A stretch of 1,199 bases of DNA. Origin: a phage. Shown piece by piece: positions 161 to 1,199 of the stretch. Made by a program: the position numbers and the translations under genes. The notes below the pieces were generated by a model, which worked only from the letters and a program-made list of their open reading frames with translations, was not told where the DNA came from and searched no databases. The stretch is taken from the sequence record OR846207.1; one strand, written 5' to 3'. Position 1 is the first letter of the stretch; each line of letters opens with the position of its first letter.

Positions 161-478
161 CTATTTTTTCTCAGAGCTCATATTGTAATAGGTGGTATAA
201 ATAGAGATTGATTTCTGACATGCTTCAAGAAATTGCTGCGGAGTCATCCCAAGCCTTGCTTGCTCTGTAGTAAGGAATCTCTGTAAGAATTCATTCCCAC
301 CCGGCATGTTTGTAGATTCTTGGAATATTGCCATTTGTTTGATTGCACCACACATACCAGCCATTTTCGAAGCTATCATGAGGCCTTGTATTTCATCAAA
401 ACTGCTATCGTCTGATTTTGTTTCTGCGTTAGCTATGCTCGAGAGACACAGGAGCAATAGGATAGCGATGCGTTTCAT
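161..478 (-). CDS. Small secreted/periplasmic protein of unknown function, 105 aa, with a Sec signal peptide; co-transcribed with the Mnt-like repressor
   Basis: N-terminus MKRIAILLLLCLSSIANA-ETK has a classic n-region (MKR), a hydrophobic core and an AXA (ANA) signal-peptidase I site. The mature part of about 87 aa has two Cys (GMCGA, EACQK) that could form a periplasmic disulfide. No lipobox is present (LLLC does not fit L-[AS]-[GA]-C). Its ATG (478-476) overlaps the upstream TGA (477-475) as ATGA. An SD-like AAGGGTG lies about 5-7 nt upstream inside the preceding gene. Confidence 0.75.
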   Translation of the reverse strand: MKRIAILLLLCLSSIANAETKSDDSSFDEIQGLMIASKMAGMCGAIKQMAIFQESTNMPGGNEFLQRFLTTEQARLGMTPQQFLEACQKSISIYTTYYNMSSEKK

Positions 479-723
479 TTTTCACCCTTACCATACATGG
501 TTTTCAGCGTCTCAAGCAGCGCCTCTTTGAATTTGTCAGCTTCTTGCTGAGCAAATGACTCAACTGACTTTGGCGACCTATCTTCATCAATCGCGGCTTG
601 CAAAATCATGACGATCTCGGAGTTAACAGAGCGACCATTTTTTGATGCTCTAACAGCAAGAGCCTCGCGTAAAGATTCAGGGATTCTTACCGTAGTTGGA
701 GAAATTGACACACCCTTTGCCAT
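475..723 (-). CDS. Mnt-like ribbon-helix-helix transcriptional repressor (Arc/MetJ superfamily), 82 aa
   Basis: N-terminal beta-strand and helix motif TVRIPESLREALAVRASKNGRSVNSEIVMILQAAI matches the RHH signature and closely parallels P22 Mnt as I recall it (FRMPMEVREKLKFRAEANGRSMNSELLQIVQDAL). A C-terminal extension ending ...LLETLKTMYGKGEK resembles the Mnt tetramerisation helix (...TLKDLYKKTT). Length is Mnt-like. SD-like AAAGGTG sits 4-6 nt upstream of the ATG at 723-721. Confidence 0.85.
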   Translation of the reverse strand: MAKGVSISPTTVRIPESLREALAVRASKNGRSVNSEIVMILQAAIDEDRSPKSVESFAQQEADKFKEALLETLKTMYGKGEK

Positions 724-743
724 AACACACCTTTGGTATTCAA

Positions 744-755
744 TTTGATATCAAA
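744..755. promoter_or_regulatory. Perfect 12-bp palindrome TTTGATATCAAA, candidate RHH operator; extends to an 18-bp near-palindrome CAaTTTGATATCAAAgTG (741-758)
   Basis: Read directly from the sequence. It lies 21 bp upstream of the Mnt-like start codon and 18 bp upstream of the -35 of the plus-strand promoter. RHH repressors bind short dyad-symmetric operators. A related half copy TTTGCTATC occurs at 791-799. Confidence 0.45.
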
Positions 756-763
756 GTGTATGC

Positions 764-774
764 AAAAAAATTTT
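764..774. promoter_or_regulatory. A7T4 tract (AAAAAAATTTT) abutting the -35 element, possible UP-element or intrinsic bend
   Basis: Read directly from the sequence. A/T tracts just upstream of a -35 hexamer are the usual position of UP elements. No functional evidence. Confidence 0.3.
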
Positions 775-801
775 GACTAGATATACTCACTTTGCTATCT
801 T
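773..801 (+). promoter_or_regulatory. Sigma70-like promoter for the Arc-like operon: -35 TTGACT (773-778), 17-bp spacer, extended -10 TGcTATCTT (793-801)
   Basis: TTGACT is 5/6 to TTGACA. Spacer is 17 bp. TATCTT is 4/6 to TATAAT and is preceded by a TG extended -10 motif. Predicted start near 808 gives a leader of about 30 nt to the ATG at 838. Confidence 0.5.
779..800. promoter_or_regulatory. Inverted repeat AGATA-N12-TATCT across the promoter spacer and -10, candidate second operator
   Basis: AGATA at 779-783 and its reverse complement TATCT at 796-800. The position between -35 and -10 is where I recall the Arc operator sitting in P22 Pant. Arms are short, so chance occurrence is plausible in AT-rich DNA. 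Confidence 0.25.
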
Positions 802-827
802 TTGTATTCGAAAAGAGTTGTTTATGT

Positions 828-833
828 GGAGGG
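828..833 (+). promoter_or_regulatory. Shine-Dalgarno GGAGGG for the Arc-like gene
   Basis: GGAGGG lies 4-5 nt upstream of the ATG at 838 and supports 838 over the TTG at 802 as the true start. Confidence 0.6.
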
Positions 834-837
834 TAAC

Positions 838-990
838 ATGGAGAAAGAAATAAGTAAGATTTTGGTAAGGATGCCGCAGTCGTTAAAGGATGCTATCGGT
901 AGCAGGGCAAAGGAAGAGTGTAGGTCGTTTAACTCAGAGGTTATCAAGCGCCTGATAGACAGCCTGAAGAGAGAGGGGGTTACGGTATGA
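838..990 (+). CDS. Arc-like ribbon-helix-helix repressor, 50 aa (MEKEISKILVRMPQSLKDAIGSRAKEECRSFNSEVIKRLIDSLKREGVTV)
   Basis: Aligns along its whole length with P22 Arc as I recall it (…FNLRWPREVLDLVRKVAEENGRSVNSEIYQRVMESFKKEGRIGA): R-[WM]-P beta-strand, RS-x-NSE helix-A cap, ESFKKEG versus DSLKREG at the C-terminus. Strong SD and ATG at 838. The ORF track's 62-aa version starts at an upstream TTG (802) with no RBS. Confidence 0.85.
   Translation: MEKEISKILVRMPQSLKDAIGSRAKEECRSFNSEVIKRLIDSLKREGVTV
971..979 (+). promoter_or_regulatory. Purine-rich Shine-Dalgarno (GAGAGGGGG) for the downstream membrane-protein gene, inside the 3' end of the Arc-like gene
   Basis: GAGG/GGGGG lies 7-10 nt upstream of the ATG at 987; that ATG overlaps the Arc-like TGA stop (ATGA at 987-990). 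Confidence 0.5.
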
Positions 991-1199
991 AGGTGTCATT
1001 GCTTGATCGTTCTTTACAATTTTTGTCTGGCGCAATCATTGTAGTTTGCTTGCTCGTGATTTTTACATCCTTAATCAATATGTATCAATCAGGGGAGCGA
1101 TTGACAAAGACGATAGAGGAAAAGAAATCAGTCTCAAATTACGAAGTATCACATGCACATAACGATTTAGTAGAAAGCCTTGACCGTATTAACAAGAGG
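987..1199 (+). CDS. 5' part of a CDS for a membrane-anchored protein of unknown function (71 aa in window, continues past the window end); one N-terminal TM helix
   Basis: ATG at 987 is in an open frame to 1199 with no stop: MKVSLLDRSLQFLSGAIIVVCLLVIFTSLINMYQSGERLTKTIEEKKSVSNYEVSHAHNDLVESLDRINKR. Residues 11-30 form a roughly 20-residue hydrophobic stretch, with K/R before it (positive-inside) and a charged hydrophilic region after. Absent from the ORF track only because it has no stop in the window. Confidence 0.7.
   Translation, partial: MKVSLLDRSLQFLSGAIIVVCLLVIFTSLINMYQSGERLTKTIEEKKSVSNYEVSHAHNDLVESLDRINKR

Follow-up and report, generated by a model that had tools for sequence, protein, structure and literature searches.

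The 1,199-nt stretch of DNA analyzed here (the window) very probably carries the secondary immunity (immI) control module of a temperate phage of the P22 type, in a form that is functional or was so until recently. The same high confidence, which belongs to the immI reading as a whole, covers the identification of the leftward gene as an Mnt ortholog, consisting of a ribbon-helix-helix (RHH) DNA-binding domain and a predicted C-terminal oligomerization helix, and of the rightward gene as an Arc ortholog heading the operon arc-orf89-ant. The protein families, the gene order, the phage context, a promoter, sar, ant, and repeated or palindromic candidate operators are all present. An earlier sequence-only reading had proposed such a pair of small repressors, and its 82-aa and 50-aa open reading frames (ORFs) and the 114-bp gap between them agree exactly with the ORF list (Table 1). 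The divergent arrangement that it described also stands, whereas its statement that the two genes face each other does not, as they lie back to back.

Table 1 Features of the window and their coordinates (position 1 is the first nucleotide of the window).
Feature	Position	Strand	Basis
orf105, small predicted exported protein	161..478	-	ORF list; PHROG 19844 (unknown function)
mnt-like gene, 82 aa, N-terminal RHH and long C-terminal helix	475..723	-	ORF list
Divergent control region, 114 bp	724..837	.	ORF list
11-mer CACTTTGNTAT, four copies	span 729..798	both strands	motif search
Near-palindrome with perfect 12-bp core TTTGATATCAAA (744-755), center 749.5	738..761	.	palindrome scan, 8/9
Pant-like promoter TTGACT-N17-TATCTT, TG before -10	773..801	+	consensus and position weight matrix (PWM)
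21-mer TAGATATACTCACTTTGCTAT, putative operator, P22 Oarc slot between -35 and -10	778..798	.	alignment
Inverted repeat TCTTTT-N7-AAAAGA, center 807	798..816	.	palindrome scan, 7/9
arc-like gene, 50 aa, single RHH domain, first in rightward operon	838..990	+	ORF list
orf89, 5' part (89 aa in source contig)	987..1199	+	PHROG 27312 (unknown function)

Profile searches place both small proteins in the RHH/Arc family, as had been suggested. Against Pfam PF03869 (Arc; gathering score 20.4), the 82-aa protein, which starts MAKGVSISPTTVRIPESL, scores 41.8 bits (E 9.7e-11), and the 50-aa protein, which starts MEKEISKILVRMPQSL from an ATG at 838 located 7 nt after GGAGG, scores 45.9 bits (E 5.1e-12). 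Because both exceed the gathering score, the RHH assignment is a profile result and no chance motif. The two proteins are paralogous (47% identity over 32 residues). Among PDB sequences, P22 Mnt (1mnt, E 2.4e-6) comes closest to the 82-aa protein, with an alignment that covers residues 12-73 and extends past the RHH domain, and the closest solved relatives of the 50-aa protein are P22 Arc constructs (E 1e-8 to 2e-4), in agreement with the earlier proposal that the pair tracks Mnt and Arc closely. In BLASTP alignments, P22 Mnt is 36% identical to the 82-aa protein over 74 residues, including the C-terminal helix, where LETLKTMYGK of the 82-aa protein is paired with FDTLKDLYKK of P22 Mnt, while P22 Arc shares 39% identity with the 50-aa protein over 38 residues. 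In P22 Mnt, the C-terminal helix is the tetramerization domain. A helix of this Mnt type had been anticipated for the 82-aa protein, and the alignment through LKTMYGK/LKDLYKK, together with the extent of the 1mnt match, upholds it. When eight Mnt alleles including that of P22 are aligned, the RHH residues R13, A26, N29, R31, S32, N34, and E36 are invariant, as are T72, L73, Y77, and K79 in the tail, which carries a shared C-terminal TL..Y.K motif. A single-sequence AlphaFold (AF2) model of the 82-aa protein (pLDDT 72) contains helices at residues 16-28 and 33-47 and a long helix at residues 51-77. The protein also matches PHROG 2685, the Mnt family, over its full length (2.2e-31), as well as PHROG 795. 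The label 'partition protein ATPase' attached to these two PHROGs was traced to a RefSeq mis-annotation of P22 mnt (NC_002371.2), and for this reason it is no evidence for a partition function. NCBIfam matches to TprA and YlcI/YnfO, at 26-31 bits against a cutoff of 150, represent generic RHH similarity only. As for the rightward gene, RefSeq annotates the same 153-nt arc-like gene in E. coli prophages, and in phage phiv205-1 it bears the annotation 'Arc protein'.

The window is found at 100% identity at positions 20651-21849 of the Salmonella phage S.Kent 1-2-1 contig, an unannotated sequence of about 22.9-23.5 kb, and parts of it are present in 245 of 5426 complete E. coli genomes at 95-99.7% identity. 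In E. coli OkiPb01711, strain 400660, and APEC O1, the module is hosted by a P22-like prophage. The left part of the E. coli prophage order comprises terminase, portal, scaffold, P22-type capsid, gp4/gp10, ejection proteins, and a few accessory genes, and the right part comprises the leftward mnt, the rightward arc, small ORF, antirepressor, and tailspike genes, and then the integrase and tRNA-Arg. The source contig, which encodes a homolog of the P22 injectosome translocase, matches this order, with ejection genes, accessory genes, and leftward mnt followed by rightward arc, small ORF, sar, ant, and tailspike gene. P22-type synteny holds for three E. coli prophages and the source contig in comparison with the annotated P22 map (BK000583.1): as on that map, the mnt-like gene is located after the ejection-protein genes and before the tailspike gene and is transcribed away from arc-ant, and the module occupies the P22 immI slot between gene 16 and gene 9 (BK000583.1 annotation). 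Judged by their predicted genes (capsid, gp4/gp10, ejection proteins, tailspike, and integrase) and the tRNA-Arg attachment site, the flanks are those of a P22-like (Lederbergvirus) prophage. The mobile-element context expected by the sequence-only reading is thus found in the structural genes, integrase, and tRNA-Arg site of the flanks, and the P22 immI-type layout that it invoked is recovered in the same genome slot, with ant and sar downstream.

Just beyond the window, the Rfam model RF00262 identifies the sar antisense RNA with 77.3 bits, the gathering score being 43 (E 1.2e-15; source contig positions 21251-21318, minus strand). This RNA, located 52-119 nt beyond the end of the window, is antisense to the ribosome-binding site of ant; its promoter-like site lies within the first ant codons and its terminator just after orf89. 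The Ant protein of the source contig, also encoded outside the window, has 307 aa, contains both P22_AR_N (8.6e-45) and P22_AR_C (3.1e-29), and is 57% identical to P22 Ant. With sar found beside mnt, arc, and ant, all four immI components are therefore present, and the gene order, the similarity of Ant to its P22 counterpart, and the sar score therefore support the immI interpretation. Regulation would be directed chiefly at ant, which lies outside the window, and not only at the two small flanking ORFs, so the earlier view of these two cargo ORFs as the regulated targets has to be amended: the main target is ant, and orf105 and orf89 are accessory. The completeness of the module also bears on a rival view, put forward for phage L and others whose mnt homolog persists without arc and ant, in which the window would be an immI remnant that is decaying or no longer functional. 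Many P22-like phages indeed have only mnt (L, Gally, VSe13), and a good mnt promoter was not found in the window with the sigma-70 PWM; however, the components are all intact in the source contig, where both ORFs have ribosome-binding sites, Ant is full-length with its two domains, and sar scores highly and has a promoter and a terminator. The module is also preserved whole in 98 E. coli genomes and at 25 IMG/VR loci, with changes that are few and mostly conservative. We consider decay of this kind very unlikely.

The control region together with both gene starts recurs in 98 of 5426 complete E. coli genomes at 92-99% identity, always between two Arc-family genes. It contains only one good promoter, which points rightward and resembles P22 Pant, with the -35 element TTGACT at 773-778 and the -10 element TATCTT at 796-801. 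This is the sole plus-strand consensus match in the control region and scores 13.6 bits with the sigma-70 PWM; the same matrix recovers the annotated P22 Pant (16.4 bits) and Pmnt (14.1 bits). Anchored on the -35 element, 21 of 29 positions are identical to P22 Pant, and an A7T4 tract followed by TTGACT is kept across allele classes A-D, which are described below. On the minus strand, no convincing leftward (mnt) promoter was detected in the window, the best PWM score being 6.9 bits compared with 14.1 bits for P22 Pmnt, and the positions of leftward-promoter candidates vary between allele classes.

Several candidate operators surround the rightward promoter. The 21-mer in its spacer is identical to the annotated P22 Oarc ATGATAGAAGCACTCTACTAT at 14 of 21 positions and has an equal offset from the -35 element, with poor internal symmetry. 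The inverted repeat centered at 807, which is weak, overlaps the -10 element and the expected start of Pant and so belongs to the position class of P22 Omnt. The near-palindrome centered at 749.5 is located between the mnt ribosome-binding site and the Pant -35 element and has no counterpart in P22. Across the whole window, only three palindrome centers reach at least 7/9, and the two strongest, 749.5 (the only one at 8/9) and 807, both fall within these 114 bp. Copies of the 11-mer occur at 729-739 (plus strand, two mismatches), 741-751 (plus, one mismatch), 758-748 (minus, no mismatch), and 788-798 (plus, no mismatch); at no more than one mismatch there are three copies, all in the control region, and none elsewhere in the whole source contig (22.9 kb searched). 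We infer operator roles for the 21-mer, the palindromes, and the 11-mer copies, and likewise which protein may bind which site.

In the P22 circuit, Mnt represses Pant, and Arc represses both Pant and Pmnt (Susskind, Youderian, Sauer, Vershon and colleagues, 1980s). By analogy, in the lysogen Mnt would bind the control region and shut the rightward promoter, so that Ant would be off and the prophage stable. After infection, Arc produced from the rightward promoter would shut this same promoter as well as mnt transcription. As in P22, the sar antisense RNA would block translation of ant, whose product would be expected to inactivate the main (c2-type) repressor of the phage. The position of the mnt promoter, the pairing of proteins with sites, and all regulatory outcomes in this scheme are carried over by analogy. 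The bistable expression predicted by the sequence-only reading is an over-reading, as the operators and the mnt promoter are putative here.

The likeness to P22 immI comprises the slot between the gene 16 homolog and the tailspike gene, the divergent mnt/arc pair, similar folds and sizes (Mnt, 83 codons in P22 and 82 aa here; Arc, 53 and 50), a strong rightward promoter with an operator-like 21-mer in the spacer, and sar with a two-domain Ant downstream. In contrast, the allele is only 36% (Mnt) and 39% (Arc) identical to P22, and its operator sequences differ; it therefore presumably has a different immI specificity. The control region measures 90 bp in P22 and 114 bp here, where there is an extra palindrome left of the -35 element, and the distance from mnt to the -35 element is 22 bp in P22 and 49 bp here. 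Whereas P22 has Pmnt, the sigma-70 PWM scan found no P22-like Pmnt consensus here, and Omnt, a perfect 17-bp palindrome in P22, is represented by a 6+6 inverted repeat. Each repressor gene has an additional ORF coupled to it here: orf105 follows mnt, and orf89 separates arc from sar. Among these features, we counted against the immI reading the missing leftward promoter and the mere 6+6 repeat at the Omnt position, as well as the splitting of arc from sar/ant by orf89.

Scanning IMG/VR with the 82-aa protein yielded 76 loci that fall into discrete allele classes (A-G). Class A, the window type, comprises 25 loci with few control-region polymorphisms. The variants T751G (7 of 25 loci) and C795A (2 of 25) both fall on the degenerate N of CACTTTGNTAT, and T751G breaks the perfect palindrome TTTGATATCAAA, which suggests that what is conserved is the 11-mer and not the palindrome. 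Class B (L036) has the same scaffold (A7T4 tract, TTGACT) and its own motif, CACTGTGATAT/TGTGATATCACA, on either side of the promoter, including a perfect TGTGATATCACA palindrome at offset +34.5, equal to that of the 798-816 repeat of the window; P22 Omnt is at +43. Classes C and D (PhiR12 type) carry CAC-NN-TGTAG direct repeats 21 bp apart, and their Mnt and Arc share the N-terminal strand. The stretch from mnt to the -35 element is about 27 bp longer in classes A-D than in P22, and the left element lies in this added sequence. Motif and recognition strand vary together between allele classes, as expected of operator and repressor pairs. Operator assignment from recognition-strand residues across the classes was suggestive and did not settle the protein-site pairing.

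The 11-mer is present both at the Oarc slot and beside mnt, so the P22 scheme of one protein for one operator may not transfer. It is conceivable, if rather unlikely, that the parts are those of P22 and the wiring is different, such that CACTTTGNTAT would be the unit of one repressor, most plausibly the Mnt-like tetramer. Tentatively, classes A-D might then share a control region of three sites based on a single repeated 11-mer, with an extra mnt-adjacent operator absent in P22. Two composite operators about 58-60 bp apart could possibly be formed, one at 728-758 beside mnt and the other at 788-817 over Pant, with Pant repressed and mnt autoregulated, perhaps by looping, and with Arc sharing the 788-798 subsite. 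In other words, and with equal reserve, one repressor, or both sharing a subsite, might control Pant and autoregulate mnt, possibly by bridging these sites. The four 11-mer copies in the control region, with none elsewhere in 22.9 kb at no more than one mismatch, and the position of the natural variants on the degenerate nucleotide of the motif are consistent with such wiring, as is the layout of class B, which repeats it with its own CACTGTGATAT-type motif on both sides of Pant. So are the PhiR12-type alleles, in which Mnt and Arc share the N-terminal strand RDI[S/A]PLGIRIP and four to five copies of one motif are found, and the location of the left element within the 27 bp absent from P22. 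However, the right-hand partner copy at 806-817 matches at 8 of 12 positions only (hand alignment against the 12-mer form CACCTTTGGTAT), and the motif copies partly coincide with the mnt Shine-Dalgarno sequence and promoter elements. Moreover, the strands of this allele differ, SPTTVRIP in the Mnt-like and SKILVRMP in the Arc-like protein, which argues for two specificities.

Earlier reports call this region of P22-like phages the 'ant moron' and describe it as highly variable (PMC2629481, PMC8022706), and one of them counts the prophage of APEC O1 (APEC-1) as one of the P22-like types of this moron (Villafane et al. 2008, PMC2629481). That paper appears to contain no operator analysis of this allele. 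In APEC-1 and phiv205-1, the mnt/arc allele and its control region are those of the window at 97-98% identity, with ant and then the tailspike gene behind them; in APEC O1, a ClpP-like protease gene follows mnt and a 57-aa ORF follows arc, whereas orf105 and orf89 take these places here. The lambdoid siphophage PhiR12 (class D) has a homologous control region with a shared GCAAAAAAATTTTGACT block, a nearly identical C-terminal half of Mnt, and the same mnt/arc/ant order. It differs in that the module is inserted among lambda-like tail genes, that Mnt and Arc share one recognition strand, and that its motif, CACGGTGTAG, forms direct repeats with a spacing of 21 bp. The system is textbook immI, already catalogued in prophage comparisons, and the allele is divergent and uncharacterized; its significance is mainly one of annotation. 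The repressor pair, named 'Arc family DNA-binding protein' or 'hypothetical' in databases, gains the functional names Mnt and Arc, and the window is assigned to antirepressor control in a P22-like phage common to Salmonella and E. coli. A divergent allele with candidate operators is thereby added to the classic model of RHH-DNA recognition, and the allele series A-G, in which each class has its own repeated motif, may provide natural data for an RHH recognition code, a use that would be incremental.

The two small flanking ORFs are morons, accessory genes that are carried along by the two promoters, and are not the purpose of the switch. The start codon of orf105 overlaps the mnt stop codon (ATGA), and its hydrophobic N-terminus ends in ANA. 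It has 11 enterobacterial homologs, all 'hypothetical', and no Pfam, NCBIfam, or PADLOC match; its AF2 model consists of three helices (pLDDT 74), for which a Foldseek search against the PDB returned no fold relatives below E = 1. The start of orf89, located between arc and sar/ant, overlaps the arc stop codon in the same way (ATGA), and a single membrane helix is predicted in its product, with a Kyte-Doolittle maximum of 2.8 at residues 12-30. Both accessory slots are variable, phiv205-1 having the same ClpP-like gene and 57-aa ORF in them as APEC O1. The ATGA overlaps with downstream ORFs, the FitA-like_RHH match of the 82-aa protein (34.4 bits against a cutoff of 27, sub-threshold-to-moderate), and weak VapB/HicB similarity would fit a pair of type II toxin-antitoxin RHH antitoxins, each translationally coupled to a downstream toxin (orf105 or orf89). 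We hold this to be extremely improbable and have rejected it: no cognate toxin of a known family was found beside either RHH gene, orf105 and orf89 match no toxin or defense family in Pfam, NCBIfam, or PADLOC and instead show an export signal or a membrane helix, and the ant/sar context accounts fully for the repressor pair. The downstream partner is swapped between prophages (ClpP-like gene, nothing, or 57-aa ORF) while the repressor pair stays, and in E. coli O139:H1 orf105 itself sits after a different Mnt allele.

Database matches to the window stop at the stop codons of mnt (477) and arc (990), and they also break within the 3′ end of mnt, at either 504 or 556. The break points at 477, 504-556 and 990 are mosaic joints, involving residues ~57-82 in the Mnt protein. 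The C-terminal tail of Mnt, ETLKTMYGK(D/G)EK, is near-identical among alleles whose DNA-binding domains are only ~35% identical. Taken together, the match breaks and the shared tail suggest recombination within the region encoding the Mnt oligomerisation helix, which would shuffle DNA-binding specificities.

Features flanking the repressor genes, and the related module in PhiR12_5 (L003, source contig of the window; L010, Escherichia phage PhiR12_5)
Feature	Window	Contig	Strand	Remarks
61-aa coiled-coil-like ORF, 3′ end	1-151	L003 19966-20151	+	PHROG 7586
orf105	161-478		-	ATGA overlap with mnt
orf89	987-1199	continues to L003 21256	+	between arc and sar/ant
mnt/arc/ant module, related to that of the window		L010 1264-3276		

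The small ORF following mnt, orf105, is translationally coupled to it via the ATGA. Its product is probably exported, with MKRIAILLLLCLSSIANA as the N-terminal stretch and the mature part following, and carries two conserved Cys. The family is small and restricted to Enterobacteriaceae, and neither an assigned function nor a fold match was found for it; in E. coli OkiPb01711 the gene was left unannotated despite 97% DNA identity. Because orf105 would be expressed together with mnt in the lysogen, it is a candidate lysogenic-conversion gene. The 61-aa ORF at the left edge of the window converges on orf105, their stop codons lying just 9 bp apart, and no terminator-like hairpin was found between the two. 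The region of this ORF, whose PHROG family is labelled unknown function, is common to phages Kapi1 and Emek, with 94% DNA identity.

On the other side of the module, the orf89 product (PHROG 27312, a family labelled unknown function) is predicted to comprise one membrane helix (residues 12-30) and a charged helical tail. P22 has nothing at this position; other prophages carry a 57-aa ORF in place of orf89.

The related module in PhiR12_5, a siphovirus, sits as an insertion within lambda-like tail genes, with the L homologue on one side and the K homologue on the other. Its Mnt and Arc share an identical N-terminal recognition strand, RDI[S/A]PLGIRIP, and its control region contains 4-5 copies of CACGGTGTAG. 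In several P22-like phages (L, Gally and VSe13), an mnt homologue directly adjoins the tailspike gene without arc or ant; such orphan mnt genes have also been noted in the literature (PMC8022706). The Mnt family is named ‘partition protein ATPase’ in PHROG 2685/795 and for mnt in the RefSeq P22 record NC_002371.2, a label that is an annotation error and has been passed on to other phage records.
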